From: Microcoleaceae cyanobacterium
GTDB taxonomy: Bacteria > Cyanobacteriota > Cyanobacteriia > Cyanobacteriales > Microcoleaceae
Direction of reading: 5' to 3'
NCBI GenBank assembly: GCA_051652765.1
Contig: JBOFUV010000078.1
Coordinates: forward strand, 1 to 21,340
Length of the DNA stretch: 21,340 nt
Position numbers and translations under genes: made by a program
In this document: in pieces, positions 2,676-21,340 of the stretch
How the letters are laid out: each line of letters begins with the position of its first letter
Numbering within the stretch: position 1 is the first letter of the stretch
The notes under the pieces: generated by a model
The model's database searches: none
The model's input: only the letters and a program-made list of their open reading frames with translations
Told to the model about the DNA's origin: nothing

Positions 2676-3674
2676 CTATCGGAACATGATACTGACCGAA
2701 CTATCTTCATGGATTCGCCAAATTGTTTCACCTAAAAGATTTGCAACTGACAACATGGTGAGTTGAGCAAATCGTTTGTCTTCTAGGACGGGAATTGTGT
2801 TAGTGACAATGACCTCTTCAAACAACCCTGTTTCAGACAATCGCTCAGCAGCAGGGGACGAAAACACAGGATGGGTTGCACAGGCATACACCTGACTTGC
2901 TCCCTTTTCTCGGAGCAATTTTGCGCCTTCAGTGATTGTGCCAGCAGTGTCGATCATATCATCGACTAATACGGCAACCTTACCCTCAACATCCCCAATG
3001 ACATTTAAAACCTCTGCCACGTTGTGAGCCTGACGACGCTTGTCAATAATTGCCAGAGGAGCATCATCTAGCTTCTTGGCAAACGCCCGCGCCCGCGCCA
3101 CCCCTCCCACATCTGGGGAAACGACAACAATGTCTGAGAGTTGCTTCCCGAGCAGATAATCTAGGATCACAGGAGAACCGTATACATGGTCAAACGGGAT
3201 GTCAAAATACCCCTGAATTTGGGCAGAATGCAAATCCATTGCTAAGATTCGACTGGCTCCAGCTTCAGTGATCAGGTTTGCAACCAACTTTGCTGTAATT
3301 GATTCTCGGCCTGCCGTTTTGCGATCTGCCCTAGCATAACCATAGTAAGGAATTACGGCAGTAATTTGCCTCGCCGATGCCCGCCGACAGGCATCGATCA
3401 TAATCAGTAATTCCATCAAGTTGTCATTGACTGGACAGCAACAAGGTTGAATGAGATAAACATCACAGCCTCGGATAGATTCTTGAATTTGAATATACAA
3501 TTCCCCGTCCGCAAATCGCTTACGAACCATTGGGCCTAAGTCAATCCCTAGATATCGACTGACTTCTATTGCCAGGGGAACATTCGCAGATCCTGAAAAG
3601 AGTCGGAGTCGGTGATGATCTGTTGGTGATTCAGCGCTCGGAAGAGGTAGAGTAGCAGATTGGATCACGGCCAT
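2676..3674 (-). CDS. prs: Ribose-phosphate pyrophosphokinase (PRPP synthetase)
   Basis: Motifs FADGE, YYGYARADRK, MDLHSAQIQGYF, VSPDVGGVARAR and the PRPP-binding loop VLVDDMIDTAGT. Confidence 0.98.
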   Translation of the reverse strand: MAVIQSATLPLPSAESPTDHHRLRLFSGSANVPLAIEVSRYLGIDLGPMVRKRFADGELYIQIQESIRGCDVYLIQPCCCPVNDNLMELLIMIDACRRASARQITAVIPYYGYARADRKTAGRESITAKLVANLITEAGASRILAMDLHSAQIQGYFDIPFDHVYGSPVILDYLLGKQLSDIVVVSPDVGGVARARAFAKKLDDAPLAIIDKRRQAHNVAEVLNVIGDVEGKVAVLVDDMIDTAGTITEGAKLLREKGASQVYACATHPVFSSPAAERLSETGLFEEVIVTNTIPVLEDKRFAQLTMLSVANLLGETIWRIHEDSSVSIMFR

Positions 3675-8887: not shown

Positions 8888-10846
8888 GTGCACTGGATGA
8901 AATCAAAATCGATTCGGCTGTGGAAACTGCTCCACTCAATTCAAGCTTCAAAGTTTGGGTGGTTACTGCCTTTGCTGTGGATTAGCTGGCTCAGTGGTAT
9001 TGCATTGTTTTTGCAATTAGGTAGCACCGGGTTACTAGACGAGACCGAACCTCTGTTTGCAGAAGCAGCCCGTCAGATGCTAGTCACAGGAGATTGGATT
9101 ACGCCCTATTACAATGAGGTCACTCGATTTGATAAGCCTCCATTGATTTATTGGCTCATGGTAATTTCTTACCAGATTTTTGGGGTTAATACTTGGGGCG
9201 TGAGGCTACCCTCTGCGATCGCTGCCTTTGGATTAACTTGTTTAGGCTTTTATACGCTGTGGTATTACGTTCAAACCCAGCTTCAAGCTCAACAAAAAGC
9301 CACTGCAATTCTGACTGCTGATCAAACAAGTGATTTGCAAAATCATCAACACGATCACGCCAACAAAAATCACCTTTTTCATCCGTTACCTTGGATCGGT
9401 TCAGCCTTGATTGCGTTAAATCCACAAATGATTGCCTGGGGAAGAGTTGGTGTTTCAGATATGCTATTGGTGAGCTGTATTGGGATTGCATTGCTTGCAT
9501 TTTTTTTGGGCTATTTAAGCTTTGAAAACAGTTTAGGATCTGATTTCCTTGAAATTGCTATACTTGACAAAAATACAAAGATCCAGACTTCAAGTCTTTG
9601 GTATTTAATCTTTCATCTCTTTATTGCTCTAGCAATTTTAACAAAAGGGCCTGTTGGATTTGTTCTACCTATGTTAGTGACTGGAACTTTTACCCTTTAT
9701 ATGGGCAACTTTCATCAGGTCTGGCGAGAAGTTCGGCCAGTTCAAGGACTAGGATTGATTTTAATTATTACTTTGCCTTGGTACATTTTGGTAACCCTTG
9801 CTAATGGCACGGCATTTCTAAATACATTCTTTGGGTATCACAATTTCCAACGCTTTACTCAGGTTGTCAATCATCACAGTGCACCTTGGTATTTCTATTT
9901 TATTGTTGTTCTACTAGGCTGCTTACCCAATTCAACTTATCTACCGATCTCTCTATTTCAGATCCGGTTTTGGCAACGTCAATCCTGGCAATATCAACCT
10001 CGCTGGCATCACCTAAAAATATTTGCTTTTATTTGGTTTCTTTGTATCTTTGTTTTTTTTACGATTTCTGTTACGAAGCTACCCAGTTATGTGCTTCCGC
10101 TGATGCCAGCTTGCGCCATTTTAATTGCATTATTTTGGAGTGAGATGATGCTTGAACCCGAAGCAATTTTGGGAAATAGTTCGTCTTCTAATACAGTATT
10201 CATGCGCCTTTTTTTTAAAGGATCTTTACTGTTAAATATTGTCTTTCTGTTAGTGCTGGCCTTTGCCAGTTTTAATACAGTGAATTGGTTGGCCTATGAT
10301 CCAGACATGCCTGCTTTTCCTCAACGGTTGCAAGAGTCTGGATTTTTATTCAGGGCTAGTTTGACTTGGTTACTCACGGCTGTCACAGTTGCCGTATTGC
10401 TCTGGCGGCAGCAAATTTCCTGGATTTTACCCATAAATCTTTTAGGATTTGTGATCTGTTTTATCGTTGCTGTTGTGCCAATTTTTAATCTGCTTGATCA
10501 GCAAAGACAAGCTCCTTTGCGAGAAATTGCCCAAGCAGTTATACAACAAAAAATATCAAATGAACCGCTCGTCGCAGTTGGGTTCATTAAGCCTAGTTTA
10601 GTTTTTTACACCAAGAATCCTGTGCAATATTACGAATACTCCACGGATGCGATCGCTGCCTTCAGTTCTCCTAGTTTTCAGTCTTCAAGTCAGGATACAA
10701 GTTCTGAAACATTTTTACTAGTTGCCTATCCTAGGGAATTTCAAAACTTAGGTTTACAGCCTGAACAATATCAGATTCTTGATCAAGCCTCTGTTTATCA
10801 ACTGGTTCGGGTTCCTCGAAAGGCATTCTCAAAGAGATCTTTTTGA
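8888..10846 (+). CDS. ArnT/PMT-like polytopic membrane glycosyltransferase (GT-C fold; GT83/GT39-like)
   Basis: DETEPLFAEAARQM..TGDWITP, RFDKPPLIYW, RLPSA, DMLL, LTKGPVG and TKLPSYVLP motifs; many TM segments. Confidence 0.9.
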   Translation: MHWMKSKSIRLWKLLHSIQASKFGWLLPLLWISWLSGIALFLQLGSTGLLDETEPLFAEAARQMLVTGDWITPYYNEVTRFDKPPLIYWLMVISYQIFGVNTWGVRLPSAIAAFGLTCLGFYTLWYYVQTQLQAQQKATAILTADQTSDLQNHQHDHANKNHLFHPLPWIGSALIALNPQMIAWGRVGVSDMLLVSCIGIALLAFFLGYLSFENSLGSDFLEIAILDKNTKIQTSSLWYLIFHLFIALAILTKGPVGFVLPMLVTGTFTLYMGNFHQVWREVRPVQGLGLILIITLPWYILVTLANGTAFLNTFFGYHNFQRFTQVVNHHSAPWYFYFIVVLLGCLPNSTYLPISLFQIRFWQRQSWQYQPRWHHLKIFAFIWFLCIFVFFTISVTKLPSYVLPLMPACAILIALFWSEMMLEPEAILGNSSSSNTVFMRLFFKGSLLLNIVFLLVLAFASFNTVNWLAYDPDMPAFPQRLQESGFLFRASLTWLLTAVTVAVLLWRQQISWILPINLLGFVICFIVAVVPIFNLLDQQRQAPLREIAQAVIQQKISNEPLVAVGFIKPSLVFYTKNPVQYYEYSTDAIAAFSSPSFQSSSQDTSSETFLLVAYPREFQNLGLQPEQYQILDQASVYQLVRVPRKAFSKRSF

Positions 10847-12826: not shown

Positions 12827-13747
12827 CTAGGAGCACTTTTTGAGAAATTCTTTGAATGTTTCCCAGTCAGGTAATGAGGGCTGTGCTCCCGATTTTGTAG
12901 TTGCTAATGCTCCAGCGGCAGCACCCCAAATCATCGACTCTTGTATGGGCAAACCTCGATCAAGGGCAGCAGCCATTGCTCCATTAAATGCATCTCCAGC
13001 CGCGACTGTATCGACAACCTTAACTTTAAACGGTTCAATCCAGACTTTTTCAGATTGATTCATGTAAAAAACACCTCGACTTCCTAGCTTGATGACAACG
13101 GTCTTGACTCCTTTTTCAATCAATATTTGTCCAGCTTTTTCCCACGCTTGCTCATCTATCATTTCAAAGCCAACTAGGCGATGAGCTTCTGTCTCATTCG
13201 GAGTAATAATATCAATTAAAGAATAAAGTTCCTCAGGAAATAATTCTGGAGCTGGCGCTGGATCAAGTACAACTATTATGCCAGCTTGATGAGCTATTTC
13301 AGCAGCTGTAATAATTGTTGCCATTGGAATTTCTAACTGTAATAATACAGTGCTGACATCAGGCAAAATATTAATTAGTTGCTGAACTTCAAGAGAACCT
13401 ACTTGGCCATTTGCTCCAGGAATCACAATAATTGTATTTTCCCCGGTATGACTGACGGTAATTAATGCAACTCCAGAACTAGTTTGAGGGCTAATTGTAA
13501 CGCTATCAATTTGAACATTAGACTTCGTTAAACTTACTAGTAACTCTTGACCCAATTGATCATCTCCAACCCGTCCTATCATATAAGTCTTGGTTTTTAA
13601 ACGAGCAGCAGCAACAGCTTGATTAGCACCTTTACCACCTGGAACGATGAAGAAGTGATGCCCCTGTAGTGTTTCTCCCGGCAGAGGTAATCGAGCAGTC
13701 TGAGTTATCAAATCCATATTAATACTACCAAAAACAATTAAACTCAT
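12827..13747 (-). CDS. rbsK: Ribokinase (PfkB family)
   Basis: FGSINMDL, PGGKGANQAVAAARL, GENTI, PGAN, LLQLEIP, TPNETE and DTVAAGDAFNG. Start refined to ATG 13747 (MSLIVFGS). Confidence 0.93.
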   Translation of the reverse strand: MSLIVFGSINMDLITQTARLPLPGETLQGHHFFIVPGGKGANQAVAAARLKTKTYMIGRVGDDQLGQELLVSLTKSNVQIDSVTISPQTSSGVALITVSHTGENTIIVIPGANGQVGSLEVQQLINILPDVSTVLLQLEIPMATIITAAEIAHQAGIIVVLDPAPAPELFPEELYSLIDIITPNETEAHRLVGFEMIDEQAWEKAGQILIEKGVKTVVIKLGSRGVFYMNQSEKVWIEPFKVKVVDTVAAGDAFNGAMAAALDRGLPIQESMIWGAAAGALATTKSGAQPSLPDWETFKEFLKKCS

Positions 13748-13847
13748 AATGATTTTTAAAGTTAAGTCTGAGCCAAAAATCCACATTTGATCTGTATTTT
13801 AGTCTTAGAGTAATCTTAAAAGTGATAAACTAAGAAAGGTTAAGAAA

Positions 13848-14411
13848 ATGCAAGATTACAAAATTATTATGCGAGCTTATCTAGCAGGCCCTGATGTTTT
13901 TTTGCCTGATCCAGAAAAAACTGCACATGCAAAACAAGAAATCTGTCAAAGATATGGGTTTGTTGGACTATTTCCTCTCGATCAAACCCTCAACATAGAA
14001 AAGTTAAATCCTCGAGATGCAGGTCTGGCAATTTATCGTAGTAATATTCAGTTAATGAATAGTTGTAGCTTGATTATTGCAAATATGACTCCGTTTCGCA
14101 GTCCTAGTTTAGATGTAGGAACAGCATTTGAAATTGGGTATATGACTGCTCAAGGTAAGCCAATATTTTGCTACAGTAACGATGACCGTCTTTACACTGA
14201 ACGGGTGATTGCTCAAGGCGCTTCAACCCTAGATCAAGTTGGAATGTTTATTGAGCAGTTTGAAATGATTGATAATCTGATGTTAGAGAGTGCCACGGTT
14301 GAAAGTGGAGGGGCAATTGCCTATGAATCTGTTGAACCTGAAGTATATTATACTGAACTTAGGGTATTTAAAAAAGTCGTAGAAATTGCAGCGCAAAAAC
14401 TTCTGGTTTAA
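13848..14411 (+). CDS. Nucleoside 2'-deoxyribosyltransferase family protein
   Basis: YLAGPDVF, IANMTPFRSPSLDVGTAFEIGY (catalytic Glu), GKP and NLML. An alternative start is ATG 13869 (MRAYLAGP). Confidence 0.88.
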   Translation: MQDYKIIMRAYLAGPDVFLPDPEKTAHAKQEICQRYGFVGLFPLDQTLNIEKLNPRDAGLAIYRSNIQLMNSCSLIIANMTPFRSPSLDVGTAFEIGYMTAQGKPIFCYSNDDRLYTERVIAQGASTLDQVGMFIEQFEMIDNLMLESATVESGGAIAYESVEPEVYYTELRVFKKVVEIAAQKLLV

Positions 14412-14424
14412 ATGATTTTTTAAT

Positions 14425-15399
14425 ATGATAAAAATTCTTCTAGATACTGATCCAGGTGGAGATGATGCCTTTGCATTCTTATGGCTTGCAAGTTTAGTAA
14501 AACAAGGATTTGCAGAGTTAATTGCAGTAACTTCAACAGAAGGGAATGTTTCTGCCGATCTAACATTTAGTAATGCATGTAAACTACTCCAACTGATAGG
14601 CTTAGATCAAGTTGAAGTTGGTCGCGGAATACCAAAACCAGAACAACTTCATAAGAATGCAACACATATTCATGGTGATGATGGCTTAGGGAATCTAGCT
14701 TGCACCTTACTAGAACCTCATCAATTCTATGTAAAAGCTAGATTTTCAGATGAAATCCTAATAGAAATGCTGACTAAATATCCTGGAGAAATTACGATTG
14801 TTGCACTCGGGCCACTGACAAATTTAGCTGCTGCAGTCATGAAAAATCCAGGAATTCTTAATTTAGCTAAAGAAATTGTGTTGATGGGAGGAGCGTTTCA
14901 GGTTCCGGGGAATGTGACCCCAGAAGCTGAATTTAATATTGCTTATAATCCCAAAGCCGCTGCAACAATTTTTGATCATTGCAACAGTTTGGTTGTATTA
15001 CCTTTGGATGTGACACGATCATTGATTTTTACTACAGATATGGCGTATGAACTCTATCAAAGTTATCCAAACCATAAAATTACTCGGTTTATTAAAGAAC
15101 TGTGTAATTCAATGACAAAAGCAGCTCTTGCTCATCGAGAAACTCAAGGAAATAAAGGGTTTCTGATTCACGATGCCGTTACTTTAGCATATTTATTTTA
15201 TCCAGAGACTTTACAGTTTTATCGAGCTAGAACTCATATCGAGGTCTCGGGTAATTTTACTCGTGGAAAAACGCTATTTGACCATCGACATAAGCCAAAG
15301 TTTTCCGCAAATTCATGGGTTGCATCATCCATAGACTCTGTTAATTTATTAACTTGTTTAGTAGAAGACTTAAAACTTTTAGTTTCAGAGGGTGTGTGA
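14425..15399 (+). CDS. Nucleoside hydrolase (inosine-uridine-preferring family)
   Basis: Ca-binding DTDPGGDD, EGNV, IHGDDGLG, LGPLTNLA, MGG, GNVTPEAEFNI, PLDVT and IHDA. Starts 13 nt after the NDT stop, so probably co-transcribed. Confidence 0.93.
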   Translation: MIKILLDTDPGGDDAFAFLWLASLVKQGFAELIAVTSTEGNVSADLTFSNACKLLQLIGLDQVEVGRGIPKPEQLHKNATHIHGDDGLGNLACTLLEPHQFYVKARFSDEILIEMLTKYPGEITIVALGPLTNLAAAVMKNPGILNLAKEIVLMGGAFQVPGNVTPEAEFNIAYNPKAAATIFDHCNSLVVLPLDVTRSLIFTTDMAYELYQSYPNHKITRFIKELCNSMTKAALAHRETQGNKGFLIHDAVTLAYLFYPETLQFYRARTHIEVSGNFTRGKTLFDHRHKPKFSANSWVASSIDSVNLLTCLVEDLKLLVSEGV

Positions 15400-15531
15400 A
15401 AGGTTGGAGTTGCTACCCAACAAATTGGGCAGTACCGCTTAAAATCTCCCTATTTTTGCTGTGGGTCTGGTTTGCTGATGCTGATCGAGACCCTTTACAA
15501 GTGAGTTTTTTTAATGACCTCTCAAGTTAAA

Positions 15532-16740
15532 TTACAGCAAGAATCCTGCTGTAGAAGCTACAATTAAGTTTGCTAAAACTCCGCCAACCATAGCGCGAAT
15601 CCCAAGTTCAGCAATTTCGCCTCGGCGTTCAGGGGCAATTCCACTTAACCCACCAATTTGAATTCCAATGGAACCAATGTTGGCAAAGCTACAGAGTGCA
15701 AATGTGACAATTCGGGTTGCCCGTTCAGAAATCGCATTGTTCTTAACAAGTTCTACTAAATCAATATAAGCAATAAATTCATTTAAGACTATTTTCTTGC
15801 CTAGTAAGGCAGCAACTTGACTGGCATCTGAGATTGGAATACCCATCAGGATAGCAACTGGATATAAGAGCATTCCTAGAATAGAGTCCAAAGAAAGCTG
15901 GGGAAACCCAAACCAGCTTCCAAACCAACCTAAAATACTATTTAATAAAGCAATTAAAGCGATAAATGCAATCATAAGTGCTGAAATATTAATTGCTAGT
16001 TTTGCTCCCTCAATTGCTCCTCCTGCAGCTGCATCAATGACATTAACTGCAGTTTTTTCAATCTCAAGTTCTAGCTTTCCTGCTGTTTCAGGTTTCTCAG
16101 TTTCGGGATAGAGTAGTTTAGAAACTCCTAAAGCGCAGGGAGCAGCCATTACTGAAGCAGTAATTAAATCTTGGGCAGAGATTCCAAAAGAAATATAAGC
16201 AGCTAAAACTCCCCCTGCAACAGTTGCAAATCCCCCCGTCATGATAGTATTTAACTCCGACTTCGTCATTGTTGAAATAAAGGGTTTGACTAACAAAGGA
16301 GCCTCAGTCATTCCAACAAAAACATTGGCAGCATTAGATAAAGATTCCGCCCCTGAAGTCCGAGCTGTTTTCAACATTATCCAAGCAGCAATTTTGACAA
16401 TTTGTTGTAGGATTCCAAGATAGTATAAGATCGAAATAAAGGAAGAGAAGAAAACAATTGTTGGTAAAACCTTAAAGGCAAAAGGGTGTTGATCATAACT
16501 TTCCCCAAAAACAAATTTTGATCCTTCTACTGTGAAATCTAAAAATCGTGTAATGATTTGTCCTATGGCATCAAAGACTAAATAAGCTCCTGGTATTTTT
16601 AGAACAAAGATGGCAATGATGAACTGTAATGCGAATCCCCAGAGAACAGGTCGCCATCTAATCGAACTCCGACTAGATGACATTAAATATCCAATCGCAA
16701 TAAAAGTTAATATCCCCAGTAAGGAAACAAGGCGCTCCAT
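15532..16740 (-). CDS. nupC: Concentrative nucleoside transporter (CNT / NupC family)
   Basis: FAFKVLPTIVFFS, ANVFVGMTEAPL, MTGGFATVAGG, MAAP, LNEFIAY and FALCSFANIGSIGI; hydrophobic, 402 aa. Confidence 0.93.
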   Translation of the reverse strand: MERLVSLLGILTFIAIGYLMSSSRSSIRWRPVLWGFALQFIIAIFVLKIPGAYLVFDAIGQIITRFLDFTVEGSKFVFGESYDQHPFAFKVLPTIVFFSSFISILYYLGILQQIVKIAAWIMLKTARTSGAESLSNAANVFVGMTEAPLLVKPFISTMTKSELNTIMTGGFATVAGGVLAAYISFGISAQDLITASVMAAPCALGVSKLLYPETEKPETAGKLELEIEKTAVNVIDAAAGGAIEGAKLAINISALMIAFIALIALLNSILGWFGSWFGFPQLSLDSILGMLLYPVAILMGIPISDASQVAALLGKKIVLNEFIAYIDLVELVKNNAISERATRIVTFALCSFANIGSIGIQIGGLSGIAPERRGEIAELGIRAMVGGVLANLIVASTAGFLL

Positions 16741-17120
16741 AAATGAATTCCTGAATTAACTTTGAGTCCAACAGGTTAAATTGTAGAGCCTTAGTCTTGA
16801 AACTCAACCCTAAAACGGTAAGATAATCAATAAGAATTAATATACTGGCGATCAATATCAGGAGATGGAAGATTGAAGAGATATGTAGGTTGAGATGTTC
16901 AGGCACAAAACCCAATGCTGGCAAGGGTTATAATATTACAGTCTTGTTCTGCAAACAATCACAGATCCTAAAATCCACTAGCTGATCAAGCCTAAATCAG
17001 TGATGAAGAAATCAAAGCAGGTTTAGCGACAAAGCCCTTAAACAAATGTCTCTACTTTTTGCTTTACTAACGTGTTTAAGCTCTTAGGTTATTTTAATTG
17101 GTTATCTTAAAACTTATTTG

Positions 17121-18473
17121 ATGTCTAAATCTGCTACTATTCATGGTTTTCGAAGTTCATTTTTAGATTTTATTGATGATCCTTTTTATTGTCAGGAATC
17201 AGACTGTACTCGGTATTTTCCTGATGGCTTACTAGTGATTGAGAATGGCAAGGTTAAAGACTTTGGAAATTACCAAGTTTTACAAAGAAAATATCCTGAT
17301 TTAGCCATCATATCTTATTCTGATAAACTAATTGTTCCAGGGTTTATTGATCTGCATGTTCACTATCCCCAAACAGAAATGATTGCCGCCTATGGCGAAC
17401 AACTCTTGGAGTGGTTGAATAAGTATACTTTTCCCACAGAAGCCAGGTTTAAGGATCAAGATTATGCGCGAACAATGGCTTGTTTTTTTCTAGATGAACT
17501 CCTGCGGAATGGAACAACAACTGCGTTAGTTCTAGCGACTGTTTTTCCTGAATCAGTTGATGCTTTTTTTGAAGAAGCTAGTCGTCGTAATCTGAGGATG
17601 ATTTCGGGAAAAGTGATGATGAATCGGAATGCACCTGAACCATTATTGGAGACTACTGGAGCATCTTATGAACAAAGCTATCAACTCATTCAAAAATGGC
17701 ATGGGAAAAATCGACTTTCCTATGCTGTAACTCCCCGGTTTGCGATCACATCCACCTCCGAACAACTTTCACTAGCAGGAAGACTATTGCGGGAGTTTCC
17801 AGATGTTTATCTTCATACTCATCTGTCTGAGAATCTAAAAGAACTTGAACTTACCCTTGAACTTTTTCCAAAGAGTGCAGATTACCTAAATGTTTATGAG
17901 CAGTTTGATTTAGTGACTCAACGATCTGTTTTTGCCCATGGAATTCATCTTTCAGAATCCGAGTTTCAACGATTATCAAAGGCGGAAGCAATGATTGCAT
18001 TTTGCCCTACGTCAAATTTATTTTTAGGCAGTGGTTTGTTTAAACTTCATACTGCAAAATCTTGGCAAACTCCGATTAAAATAGGTTTAGGAACAGACAT
18101 TGGTGCAGGGACGAGTTTCTCTCTGCTACAAACTGCAAGTGAGGCATATAAAATCGGTCATTTACAGGGAAATCCATTCTCTGGTTTGCAGGGATTGTTT
18201 CTGGCCACCTTGGGAGGAGCGAGAGCCCTCTCACTTGATCATCAAATTGGTAATTTTGAGGTTGGGAAAGAGGCAGATTTTGTGGTTCTAGATTGGCAGT
18301 CTACTCCCCTTTTATCCCTGAGAACTCAGAATGCTGCAGGTGCAAAAACAGTTGAAGAAATCGCTGACCAGATCTTTACCCTAATGATGCTAGGAGATGA
18401 TCGCGCAACTCACGCGACTTATGTCATGGGAAACTTGATGTATCCAGCTTCAGGTAACGAAACAAGACTCTAG
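17121..18473 (+). CDS. guaD: Guanine deaminase (amidohydrolase family)
   Basis: PGFIDLHVHYPQ, LLEWL..YTFP.E, NGTTT, VTPRFA, HTHLSEN, FAHG, CPTSNLFLGSG, GTDIGAG, ATLGGA and LGDDR. Confidence 0.95.
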   Translation: MSKSATIHGFRSSFLDFIDDPFYCQESDCTRYFPDGLLVIENGKVKDFGNYQVLQRKYPDLAIISYSDKLIVPGFIDLHVHYPQTEMIAAYGEQLLEWLNKYTFPTEARFKDQDYARTMACFFLDELLRNGTTTALVLATVFPESVDAFFEEASRRNLRMISGKVMMNRNAPEPLLETTGASYEQSYQLIQKWHGKNRLSYAVTPRFAITSTSEQLSLAGRLLREFPDVYLHTHLSENLKELELTLELFPKSADYLNVYEQFDLVTQRSVFAHGIHLSESEFQRLSKAEAMIAFCPTSNLFLGSGLFKLHTAKSWQTPIKIGLGTDIGAGTSFSLLQTASEAYKIGHLQGNPFSGLQGLFLATLGGARALSLDHQIGNFEVGKEADFVVLDWQSTPLLSLRTQNAAGAKTVEEIADQIFTLMMLGDDRATHATYVMGNLMYPASGNETRL

Positions 18474-18771
18474 CTTCACCCCTGAAATCTATCCCAGAAA
18501 TTTGACGAACAGGACAGATTTAGCAATAATACTGGTACTACGAAGGCTAAAGTGCCGCGTATTGCATCTAGGGTGCTGGTTTTGTTTTTATAGTTTGTCT
18601 CTGCAAATTTGTTTTTGTGGGTTTGTTTCTGTAAAACGCGCAATAGCCTAAAGACAATCGATTGAGGGCTGCATCAGACTGTCAGTTTTAGATGGGGGTA
18701 TCTTTGGAGAAACCTTCTAGGAGGGCAGTTGTAGTCATTGTATAGGTTTTTTGCTTTATAGCTCTTCAAAG

Positions 18772-18801
18772 TTTAACCCGAGCTGAACCTGAAGTTAACT
18801 T
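18772..18801 (+). promoter_or_regulatory. Putative SphR (PhoB) Pho box upstream of the CRP-family regulator
   Basis: TTTAACCC-gag-CTGAACCT-gaa-GTTAACTT: three 8-mers at 11-bp period resembling the cyanobacterial Pho consensus PyTTAAPyPy(T/A). A TATAGT -10-like hexamer lies at 18815-18820. Confidence 0.7.
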
Positions 18802-18841
18802 TGATAGCTCAAAATATAGTTAAGAGTTTTATGGCTTTATT

Positions 18842-19411
18842 GTGGCAGCTTCTAACGTGGTTGTGCTTGTAGATCAGACATCGCGCAGCTTTGGCCGCCG
18901 TGATCTTGTTCCTCTCTGGCCTGATGCTTTGTGGAAAATTGAACAGGGAGTTGTCCGCACTTTAACTTGGAGTGAGGAAGGAACCCTGATTAGCCTGGGA
19001 TATTGGGGAAAGGGTGATGTTGTTGGGCAGCCCCTGACCCGCCTTGACCCTTATCAAATTGAGTGTTTGACCCCAGTATCCGCTGACTTGATTCCTCCAC
19101 AGCAATGGTCACAGGAGCTAGACGCAATCTTGTCCCACACTCAACAAGCCCAAGAGCTTCATAGTATTGTGCAGACTCAAGGTACAGACCAACGGTTACT
19201 CAGCTTTCTCAACTGGTTGGCCAAAAAGTTTGGTCAATCAACGGACATGGGGCGACTTATTGATTTGCGACTGACTCATTTGGAAATCTCTGATGTCATC
19301 GGTACAACTCGAGTTAGTGTCACTCGGATGATGTGTCGCTTAGAGGCTCAAGGCATTATTCTGCGTCCCGGTCGTCATTCTATTGTATTGCGGTCAAATC
19401 GATTGGCTTAA
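18842..19411 (+). CDS. CRP/FNR-family transcriptional regulator, short cyanobacterial PtrA/CysR-like type
   Basis: LWKIEQGVVRTLTWSEEG..ISLGYWGKGDVVG (truncated cNMP-like domain), RLLSFLNWLA and the HTH LRLTHLEISDVIGTTRVSVTR. Confidence 0.88.
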   Translation: MAASNVVVLVDQTSRSFGRRDLVPLWPDALWKIEQGVVRTLTWSEEGTLISLGYWGKGDVVGQPLTRLDPYQIECLTPVSADLIPPQQWSQELDAILSHTQQAQELHSIVQTQGTDQRLLSFLNWLAKKFGQSTDMGRLIDLRLTHLEISDVIGTTRVSVTRMMCRLEAQGIILRPGRHSIVLRSNRLA

Positions 19412-19465
19412 ATTTAGGGACAATTTATTAGAGGGCTGAAATTTAGAAAGCGCTGTACTTAATAC

Positions 19466-19495
19466 TTTAACCTTTAATAAATCTTTTCTTAACCT
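19466..19495 (+). promoter_or_regulatory. Putative second SphR Pho box, upstream of the nucleotidase/phosphatase
   Basis: TTTAACCT (19466-19473), ATAAATCT (19477-19484), CTTAACCT (19488-19495): 11-bp period with two perfect consensus half-sites. Confidence 0.6.
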
Positions 19496-19518
19496 TGCTA
19501 ACTCAAGCGAGGCCAATT

Positions 19519-19560
19519 TTGCTGGAATTAACTTGCTGGAATTAACTTGCTGGAATTCAT
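19519..19560. repeat. 14-bp tandem repeat x3
   Basis: TTGCTGGAATTAAC 19519-19532; TTGCTGGAATTAAC 19533-19546; TTGCTGGAATTCAT 19547-19560. Confidence 0.9.
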
Positions 19561-19858
19561 TAGGGTTCATTTTCACAAGGTTTTTGTAAAATTTTTGTAA
19601 GTTTAGGGCTTTTAATCTAGATTGAGATCTTCTAAGATATCATCGGAGTTAGCTTCTTCACAATCAGTTGAAGACAGTGTAGCTGCGTTTTTTGAGGCTC
19701 GAATATTCACATAGTTAGGTTGGTTTGAATGATAACCTTGCTGTGGTGGAAGGCTCAGTTGATGCCGAGCTTTTGCAGGGGGATGATGCAACCTACATTT
19801 TGAGGCGGACGCAGTTACATTAACCCCAGTGTGCAATCGTTAACGGTCACTCCTCACT

Positions 19859-19872
19859 GTATTCCTGCTTAC
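19859..19872. promoter_or_regulatory. GTA-N8-TAC (NtcA-type) palindrome about 100 nt upstream of the nucleotidase ATG
   Basis: GTA-TTCCTGCT-TAC. There is no canonical TAN3T -10 element 22-23 nt downstream, so support is weak. Confidence 0.3.
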
Positions 19873-19973
19873 GTTAAAGCTGAACTCGCAGCTAATCCTG
19901 AGAGTGTTACCAGCCATAGTCTGCTGAGATTGTGAGTCAATTTACTATTAACCCTGAATTACCTGAACTAATC

Positions 19974-21340
19974 ATGGCTTTTGAACTACAAATTCTGCAT
20001 ACATCCGATCAGGAAGCCGGAATTCCGGCACTAAACGATGCCCCCGGACTTTCTGCGGTTTTAAATGCCCTGGAAGGCGACTTTGCCAACACCATTAAGT
20101 TGAGTTCTGGGGACTTATTTATTGCAGGGCCATTCTTCGATGCTAGCCGCAAAATCTACGATGGCGGCGGCTCCGAAGGTCTACCCGGTGTGGCTGATAT
20201 CCTGATTCAGAACGAACTCGGTTGGGATGCGGCGGCAGTTGGAAATCATGAATTTGATGCGGGAAGCAGCACGTTTTTCAATCTCCTCGCCCCAAACCCT
20301 GCAATTATAAATGGTACAGGTGGCGGTGTGGGAATTACAGGAACCTATCCTGGTGCCTCTTTCCCTTACCTGTCCAACAACCTAGACTACTCCAACATTA
20401 CGTTACCTCCAGGGTTAACTGTTGTTGAAAATGGAGGCGCACCCCAGCCCAATAGCCTCACAGGCAGCGTCATCGTTGACGTGAACGGAGAGCAAGTGGG
20501 TGTGCTGTCAGCAGTCACTCCTTACCTCCCTTCCATTGCTGGGATTGGAGATGTAGTCATCACAACCGGTGAGGGATTTACTTCTGCAACCCCCATCGCC
20601 CAGCAAGTGGATGCCTTGGTTGCCAATTTGCAGCCAGAAGTTCAAGCCCTCACCGATGCTGGAGTCAACAAGATTATCCTGATGACTCACCTGCAAGAAG
20701 CTGAAATTGAGCAGGCATTAGCCCAAGCCTTGGCGGATCAAGATATTTCCGTAGACGTACACATCGGGGGTGGTTCTCACCGGGTAATGACCAATGAGAA
20801 TACAATTCCACCCCTGCGAGCAGACGAAACCCAGCAGAACAGCGGGCAATTGTTAATCCCCTATCCCCAACCCTTTACCAACCCTGGGGATGACGATGCA
20901 GAAAACACCGTCTACTACATCAACACTGGAGCCAACTACCGTTACCTCAGCCAGTTGGTCGCCAACTTTGATGACAATGGAGTCATCACTGAAATTGGCG
21001 ACGAAAGCGGTACCTTTGCAACGGATATTGCCGGAGTTGCTCAGCTTTATCCTGAAGCAACCGTTGAAGATATTGATGACGTGAAAGCGCTTGCTGACCC
21101 CGAACTGGTCGGCATCATCAACGGCATTGGTGAATATGTCAATACTCTAGATGCCAATATCTTTGGCCAAACCGATGTCTTCCTGAATGGAATTCGCGGC
21201 GACGTTCGGACTCAGGAAACCAACTTGGGAAGCCTGACCGCCGATGCCAACGACTTCTATGCCGAGGAATACCTGGCAGCAGGTTTGCTGGGAGATGCCT
21301 TTGCAGGCTTTGAGGAGATTGATATTTCCTTCAAGAATGG
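19974..21340 (+). CDS. Bifunctional metallophosphatase/5'-nucleotidase (UshA-like; cyanobacterial atypical alkaline phosphatase type), partial, runs off the window
   Basis: Not in the ORF track because there is no stop in the window. From ATG 19974: MAFELQILHTSDQEAG...LSSGDLFIAGPFF...GNHEFD (20241)...MTHLQ (20682)...IGGGSH (20763)...DVRTQETNLG (21201)...DISFKNG (21321). All motifs are in the same frame. Confidence 0.9.
   Translation, partial: MAFELQILHTSDQEAGIPALNDAPGLSAVLNALEGDFANTIKLSSGDLFIAGPFFDASRKIYDGGGSEGLPGVADILIQNELGWDAAAVGNHEFDAGSSTFFNLLAPNPAIINGTGGGVGITGTYPGASFPYLSNNLDYSNITLPPGLTVVENGGAPQPNSLTGSVIVDVNGEQVGVLSAVTPYLPSIAGIGDVVITTGEGFTSATPIAQQVDALVANLQPEVQALTDAGVNKIILMTHLQEAEIEQALAQALADQDISVDVHIGGGSHRVMTNENTIPPLRADETQQNSGQLLIPYPQPFTNPGDDDAENTVYYINTGANYRYLSQLVANFDDNGVITEIGDESGTFATDIAGVAQLYPEATVEDIDDVKALADPELVGIINGIGEYVNTLDANIFGQTDVFLNGIRGDVRTQETNLGSLTADANDFYAEEYLAAGLLGDAFAGFEEIDISFKN

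Follow-up and report, generated by a model that had tools for sequence, protein, structure and literature searches.

Two neighboring, probably separate gene units on one contig

The window analyzed here, 21,340 nucleotides (nt) long, is the complete contig C78 of a draft genome of a Microcoleaceae cyanobacterium (G000; 5.04 Mb, 46% GC, 99.97% complete). It carries seven consecutive genes, namely a ribokinase gene (rbsK), an NDT-family gene (NDT), a nucleoside hydrolase gene (NH), nupC, guaD, a gene for a CRP-family regulator, and a phosphatase gene truncated by the contig edge. We suggest that these genes probably represent two neighboring, separately controlled units, a five-gene nucleoside block and a regulator-phosphatase pair preceded by Pho boxes, rather than one island. 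A sequence-only reading of the window had proposed a single nutrient-scavenging island, possibly under phosphate control. Profile searches agree with its row of seven genes, position by position, and its count of at least four transcription units stands (there are probably six), with rbsK on the reverse strand, NDT and NH on the forward, nupC on the reverse, and guaD, the CRP gene, and the phosphatase gene all on the forward strand. The island itself fared worse, since the two blocks lie mostly apart in relatives.

We searched each of the seven genes in 40 relatives of G000 and fetched and read their flanks (G denotes genomes and L loci throughout). None of the 40 has the complete row, which occurs in G000 only. 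The row splits into three modules found apart in relatives: rbsK-NDT-NH, linked in G005, G018, L074, L075, and L089; nupC-guaD, adjoining in G002 and parted by an NCS2 permease gene in G007, G018, and G020; and CRP-phosphatase, found in G005 and G018. The latter two genomes have all seven genes, on at least three contigs with unrelated flanks. The congener G002 keeps nupC-guaD-CRP, with rbsK-NDT, NH, and the phosphatase gene each elsewhere amid unrelated genes, and G001 keeps CIA30-rbsK-NDT. Distances between the genes found range from tens of kilobases to megabases in G016 and G028, two near-closed genomes. Thus, NH-nupC is the sole junction unique to G000, and guaD-CRP is found otherwise only in G002. 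Contig breaks can be excluded as the cause of lost linkage in G002, G005, and G018, where unrelated flanking genes were seen; a contig break likely explains it in G001, whose rbsK-NDT contig ends in a degenerate NH-like start. In the same genome, NDT (L051 11730-13157) and NH (L052 31-1080) each contain an internal TAG, as expected of jointly lost genes, and NDT is followed by a pair that by eye resembles HigBA. The module appears to be in decay in this genome.

The wider samples show the same separation. We collected 85 loci with an NH ortholog (60 from metagenomes and 25 from genomes, 60 of the 85 spanning at least 10 kb; one duplicate was excluded, and the near-identical L089 and L075 are both included). 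Across them rbsK occurs in eight, NDT in eight, nupC in two, guaD in one, and the CRP or phosphatase gene in none. At guaD loci other than that of G000, a CRP gene was found within 1.5 kb in none of 24 and within ~10 kb in none of 20, whereas an NCS2 gene lies within 1.5 kb in eight of the 24. Only one of the seven close CRP orthologs adjoins a nucleoside gene, and G004, G009, and G017 have the Pho-boxed CRP gene with no orthologous NH or NDT found. Linkage of the nucleoside block with the CRP-phosphatase pair is thus missing from all relatives searched, except for the guaD-CRP junction of G002.

Pho boxes mark only the last two genes, as had been noted from the sequence. The binding site of SphR comprises three or more 8-bp repeats in tandem, separated by 3-bp linkers (PMC1906773). 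Both predicted arrays are real and have this form, with three repeats each: one at 18772-18801, 40 nt 5' of the CRP gene, and one at 19466-19495, ~480 nt 5' of the phosphatase start, both on the forward strand. We trained a matrix on the arrays 5' of the CRP orthologs in seven other genomes and ranked 3257 upstream regions of G000. The CRP and phosphatase regions took the first two ranks, with the phosphatase box at rank 1; the rank of the CRP box follows partly from the construction of the training set, whereas that of the phosphatase box does not. None of 300 shuffles of either region reached its score, and several other top-ranked regions precede phosphatase- or phosphate-binding-like genes (named by eye). 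A Pho box (four mismatches or fewer) precedes seven of seven close CRP orthologs and none of 20 distant paralogs, and an array matching the phosphatase box occurs at the same place in G018 (three mismatches) and, weaker, in G005 (five). Before the five nucleoside genes, in turn, the best SphR repeats have six to eight mismatches (NDT rank 620, rbsK 1814, nupC 2076, and guaD 2476 of the 3257).

The NtcA pattern GTA-N8-TAC occurs in neither divergent gap, in G000 or in the orthologous gaps scanned, and no common motif is evident in these gaps. A GTA-N8-TAC at ~19859, before the phosphatase gene, was rejected, being absent from the G005 and G018 gaps, and a Pho-like array before deoC (rank 11) was set aside as chance, with five to eight mismatches in all five orthologous regions. 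A 14-nt unit in three tandem copies (19519-19560) lies just 3' of the second Pho box, in the long phosphatase leader.

Base composition also changes abruptly between guaD and the CRP gene. The five nucleoside genes (12827-18473) have a GC content at third codon positions (GC3) of 0.22-0.29, compared with a genome median of 0.456, and are the only run of five open reading frames below 0.30 among 2646 such runs. The CRP gene (0.44) and the phosphatase gene (0.50) are ordinary. HIP1 sites are absent from the 5.6-kb block, where ~3.6 would be expected.

Expression data from Trichodesmium bear on the proposed phosphate control of the nucleoside genes. Raw counts in the supplement of PMC6411698 compare cells with (+P) and without (-P) phosphate. 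The phoA transcript rises from 2389/2748/1827 to 6674-24265 (~6-fold, with ~2.5-fold more protein). In contrast, the nucleoside permease (1224/790/758 with phosphate versus 665-1044 without), ribokinase (151/122/106 versus 84-152), and IU hydrolase (232/195/154 versus 116-265) are flat, as is deoC. In these data the IU-family hydrolase Tery_3465 shows no induction, despite its position two locus tags away from phoA (Tery_3467). Together with the placement of the boxes, these counts argue, indirectly, against phosphate control of the nucleoside genes; with the unlinked blocks of the relatives, the outcome that the sequence-only reading named as refuting it has largely come about.

The nucleoside block

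The block opens with rbsK (12827-13747, reverse strand; 306 amino acids (aa) from an ATG at 13747). Its product scores 340.8 bits against TIGR02152, above the cut-off of 299.65, and slightly below the cut-off for PRK11142 (328.7 versus 341); it carries GSINMD, GGKGANQA, NETE, and DTVAAGDAF, which we take to be the substrate and anion-hole motifs.

The NDT gene (13848-14411, forward) encodes a 187-aa PF05014 protein with a C-terminal extension, whose true start is likely Met8. Its sole relatives of solved structure are trypanosomatid purine 2'-deoxyribosyltransferases, LmPDT of Leishmania (6QAI, E 1.8e-15) and TbPDT of Trypanosoma (2A0K, E 6.5e-14). Type I enzymes are marked by a Tyr near the catalytic Glu, tied to deoxy preference, and by an NLM motif (PMC7308715). 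The window protein has these features: Y11, D89, E95, and N143-L144-M145 are unchanged in all six aligned orthologs, and its Tyr, Asp, catalytic Glu, and NLM motif align with those of LmPDT and TbPDT. It differs from these in being bacterial and in its C-terminal extension. PF05014 is common to deoxyribosyltransferase and dNMP glycosidase subfamilies, and the company of a hydrolase and a ribokinase suggests a catabolic rather than a transferase role; from these operon partners we infer the cleavage of deoxy-purine nucleosides.

NH (14425-15399, forward; PF01156) starts 13 nt after NDT, and the two are likely cotranscribed. Its product scores under every Rih equivalog cut-off, and its fingerprint DTDPGGDD (D7-D14), H83 region, and H249-D250 are unchanged in nine of nine aligned sequences. 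Group I nucleoside hydrolases combine DxDxxxDD with a His in the beta3-alpha3 loop and a His before the last Asp (PMC8910321). The window enzyme has the motif and a His at both leaving-group positions; the two Trp that replace these His in the purine-specific IAG/IG enzymes of group II are absent, and IAG enzymes match only weakly. By sequence it belongs to group I, non-specific or pyrimidine-preferring, and not to the purine-specific Trp type. The purine recovery that had been proposed stands in part, given this His/His active site.

Convergent with NH is nupC (15532-16740, reverse), with a terminator-like hairpin at its end (15533-15553). The transporter scores 453.7 against TIGR00804 (cut-off 442), contains PF01773, PF07670, and PF07662, and matches the structures of CNT3 and vcCNT (E ~1e-102 to 1e-107); two further CNT paralogs are encoded elsewhere in G000. 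Divergent from nupC is guaD (17118-18473, forward), for a guanine deaminase with its metal-site motifs present and 572.9 bits against TIGR02967 (cut-off 375.4). The gap between NH and nupC (15384-15500), the one junction unique to G000, holds a dispersed small repeat resembling intergenic stretches on contigs C34, C26, and C82 at 72-88% identity.

The five genes likely form a real and little-described module for nucleoside use, because they are paired in shifting combinations across distant cyanobacteria, which supports the proposal that they make up one nucleoside pathway. Thus, L097 has rbsK-nupC-NH, L189 has rbsK-NH, and a single closed genome has both rbsK-guaD (L232) and nupC-NDT (L279). 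A distant cyanobacterial metagenome-assembled genome (MAG) has xdhC-xdhA-NCS2-guaD-rbsK-nupC-NH (L076 1808-10972), a fuller catabolic version of the block. Moreover, rbsK adjoins NH in loci of non-cyanobacterial type (e.g., L149-L153, L160, L162, L164, L165, and L168). The closest hydrolases among titled records are from one Oscillatoriales MAG and two Lyngbya genomes. Across 401 cyanobacterial genomes, sampled for distribution over the phylum, we found NH in 19, guaD in 24, and NDT in four.

A different nucleotidase accompanies NH in 12 of the 85 loci (L190, L192, L193, L194, L101, L103-L105, L107, L117, L142, and L147). This ~493-aa canonical UshA-like protein has no evident signal peptide and often comes with a second divergent hydrolase; the pair is a separate conserved unit.

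Nucleoside-use sets of NupC, a Rih-type hydrolase, and RbsK are known from Escherichia coli and other heterotrophs. The gene families here are the same, whereas the window block belongs to a photoautotroph, adds a trypanosomatid-type NDT and guaD, and is arranged divergently and convergently, without a cognate repressor gene. A literature search judged by titles and abstract starts, with few subscription journals covered, gave no description of such a cluster in cyanobacteria; two nucleoside/purine transporters are counted in PMC3858816. All parts belong to known families.

Fate of the purine bases

The sequence-only reading had also proposed a complete pathway with recovery of nitrogen. This is overstated: searches of the 99.97%-complete G000 found no xanthine dehydrogenase (xdhB), uraH, or uraD, although the same searches gave matches in 5-6 of 14 genomes as a control, and no XdhC, NCS2, or adenine deaminase either. 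Aerobic purine catabolism clusters combine guaD with xdhABC, uraH/uraD, and NCS2. The window shares guaD with them, and guaD of relatives lies beside NCS2, xdhC, or uraH/uraD-like genes, whereas G000 has none of these partners and lacks the xanthine dehydrogenase, HIU hydrolase, and OHCU decarboxylase of the complete pathway; xdhB is also lacking in 16 of 24 guaD-bearing genomes. Guanine would therefore yield one of its five nitrogens.

Nucleosides would enter through NupC. Their cleavage would fall to the group I hydrolase for ribonucleosides and to the NDT-family enzyme for 2'-deoxy purine nucleosides. RbsK would then phosphorylate the freed ribose or deoxyribose, for the pentose-phosphate pool or for DeoC, which is encoded elsewhere in G000 together with Apt-like and Gpt-like phosphoribosyltransferases (the latter two named by eye). 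GuaD would convert guanine into xanthine and one ammonium. Without xanthine dehydrogenase the ring would stay closed, so that the bases would mostly be salvaged through the Apt-like and Gpt-like transferases. Base salvage and a supply of pentose carbon are thus the likely uses of the block, along with a minor gain of nitrogen.

The regulator and the phosphatase

The regulator gene (18842-19411, forward) encodes a short CRP/Fnr-family protein with an HTH_Crp_2 domain, whose best NCBIfam match is NF053664, PtrA. PtrA of marine Synechococcus is described as a PhoBR-controlled CRP-family regulator that forms a second tier under PhoBR and induces phosphatases (PMC11098088, PMC11665274). The window protein resembles it in being a short CRP-family protein with a conserved Pho box upstream and a phosphatase gene adjoining, and differs in scoring only 91.5 bits against the cut-off of 300. 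No phosphatase gene accompanies the Pho-boxed regulator gene in G004, G009, and G017 (L070, L071, and L072); its divergent neighbors there, named by eye, are a PadR-like gene and an RND efflux pair.

The last gene (19974-21340, forward, to the contig end) encodes the first 455 aa of a large phosphatase of UshA-like type. This frame has no Pfam match, and its UshA/NadN/CpdB-type matches are weak, all far below cut-offs. The GD and GNHEFD metal motifs are present, whereas the first and last read HTSDQE and GGGSHR, unlike the HSNDMH and GGHSH of the canonical UshA-like protein of L193. A contig of the same genome, C53, starts with a 1288-codon frame that matches orthologs from ~6 residues past residue 455 and carries a 5'-nucleotidase C-terminal domain (PF02872), choice-of-anchor I, Ig, and RTX repeats, in the same domain order as the orthologs of G018 (1782 aa) and G005 (2154 aa). 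A second phosphatase copy of G000 (C65; L050 8715-11360), of 881 aa and 81% identity, lies whole on a contig of its own; C53 therefore most likely continues C78, which would give an RTX-tailed UshA/choice-of-anchor protein of ~1750 aa. The gene labeled 5'-nucleotidase in the sequence-only reading thus probably encodes a large multidomain phosphatase, with two deviating metal motifs and with the nucleotidase C-terminal domain on the likely continuation.

Large enzymes of this kind have been annotated as atypical PhoA or 5'-nucleotidase (PMC12260270, PMC11665274, PMC11098088); one gene annotated phoA is noted to be a 5'-nucleotidase (PMC12260270), and according to PMC11098088 no hidden Markov model (HMM) exists for atypical PhoA. 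Like the atypical PhoA/UshA-type 5'-nucleotidases of Synechococcus PCC 7942 and the Synechocystis phoA-nucH operon, to which we liken it by description only, the window protein is large and Pho-boxed, with putative UshA-like metallophosphoesterase and probable 5'-nucleotidase C-terminal domains.

We saw no signal peptide by eye at the phosphatase start. RTX repeats without a signal peptide are typical of type I secretion, which suggests this route of export. HlyD and PhoB model searches found candidates, none over cut-off, so that neither a type I exporter nor SphR could be pinned to a gene. Convergent pstS- and pstB-like genes follow the likely phosphatase continuation on C53, and the phosphatase gene is likely the edge of a phosphate island. 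We predict from the boxes that the CRP gene and the phosphatase gene belong to the ordinary SphR regulon of phosphate starvation, and the pair fits the regulatory pattern described above. SphR would switch on both, and the Pst system would take up the phosphate that the phosphatase frees outside the cell. NupC could import the nucleosides left over by the phosphatase; there is no sign here of joint control of the two units.

The C65 copy of the phosphatase has no choice-of-anchor domain and has its own, weaker three-repeat array (rank 52). In the ortholog of G005 (L059 1668-8132), an additional endonuclease/exonuclease/phosphatase domain is fused to the N-terminal side of the nucleotidase. The ortholog of G002 (L058 ~10150-10480) is frameshifted near codon 54, a pseudogene or an assembly error, and the 550 nt scanned before it contain no good Pho array.

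Alternative explanations

Several observations weigh against two separate units. NH-nupC is the only junction without a counterpart in another genome, and G002 retains guaD-CRP; the row nupC-guaD-CRP, possibly with the phosphatase gene, may therefore predate the G000 strain. A PtrA-type regulator acts on genes that lack Pho boxes (PMC11098088), and a PtrA-like second tier could do so here, so the absence of boxes would be compatible with phosphate control. Coupling of a nucleotidase to the hydrolase does recur, given the 12 of 85 loci in which NH adjoins a UshA-like nucleotidase of a different kind. Most relatives are fragmented drafts, with only two congeners in the collection, and the Trichodesmium values, which are raw counts, come from another genus, whose permease, ribokinase, and hydrolase may not be orthologs and whose phoA may be another protein type. 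In its strongest form, the island would run from SphR through the PtrA-like regulator to the nucleoside genes next to it; cells starved of phosphate would then strip extracellular nucleotides and import the nucleoside as well. The physical adjacency in G000, the retained guaD-CRP junction, the second tier described for PtrA (PMC11098088), a chemistry whose steps chain, and the pairing of NH with another nucleotidase all speak for it. We nevertheless find it quite unlikely, given the single nucleoside neighbor among seven close CRP orthologs, the three genomes that keep the boxed regulator without NH or NDT, the uninduced homologs in the Trichodesmium supplement, and the step in GC3 between guaD and the CRP gene; moreover, nucleoside import gains no phosphorus and RbsK costs ATP. 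We hold at equally low credence that a PtrA-like regulator was recruited over the adjacent block, with phosphate-triggered stripping of extracellular nucleotides from RNA and DNA, subsequent import and dismantling of ribo- as well as deoxyribonucleosides, and the trypanosomatid-type NDT as the DNA arm. If the regulator does control the block, these genes would be the first defined targets for PtrA-like proteins of freshwater or mat cyanobacteria.

Two further explanations concern the nucleoside block. It might mainly recycle the cell's own nucleic-acid turnover and recapture nucleosides leaked into the mat or sheath, foreign nucleotides being no meaningful nutrient. The lack of export signals by eye in NH, NDT, RbsK, and GuaD, the missing ring catabolism, the two additional CNT paralogs, and the wide occurrence of CNT homologs (31 of 41 genomes, versus 13 of 41 for NH) would fit. 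However, the enzymes repeatedly cluster with importers (nupC in L076, L097, and L279; NCS2 at eight of 24 guaD loci), their patchy distribution over the 401 genomes suits a niche trait better than housekeeping, and PMC5029224 reports the breakdown of extracellular nucleic acids by mat cyanobacteria; we regard this explanation as unlikely. Alternatively, the five genes could have been transferred or replaced together from an unsampled AT-richer relative and lie beside the Pho pair by chance, as their uniformly low GC3 and the absence of HIP1 sites might suggest. Gene trees place rbsK (support 87/82), NH (99/95), and guaD (98, quick tree) with the congener G002, and NDT and nupC, although unresolved, inside the same group. 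Furthermore, CIA30-rbsK is common to G001 and guaD-CRP to G002, so both outer junctions are ancestral, and no insertion-marking repeats, terminal repeats, or transposase were seen at the block. A joint transfer is thus very improbable, and two neighboring, separately controlled units remain the explanation that we favor. Under this explanation, a module for nucleoside use, in which a rare NDT joins a hydrolase and a ribokinase, is likely present in some filamentous cyanobacteria and would allow primary producers in mats to import and reuse the breakdown products of nucleic acids.

Other features of the window

An Rfam scan of the window gave no matches, and therefore no purine riboswitch, and scans for sigma-70 promoters and terminators remained at background level (14 versus 18.8 and 4 versus 5.3, respectively). 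A prs gene for ribose-phosphate pyrophosphokinase (PF00156 match) lies at 2676-3674, 9 kb from the nucleoside genes; in the loci fetched from relatives, no prs was seen next to them. Its product would consume the ribose-5-phosphate made by RbsK.

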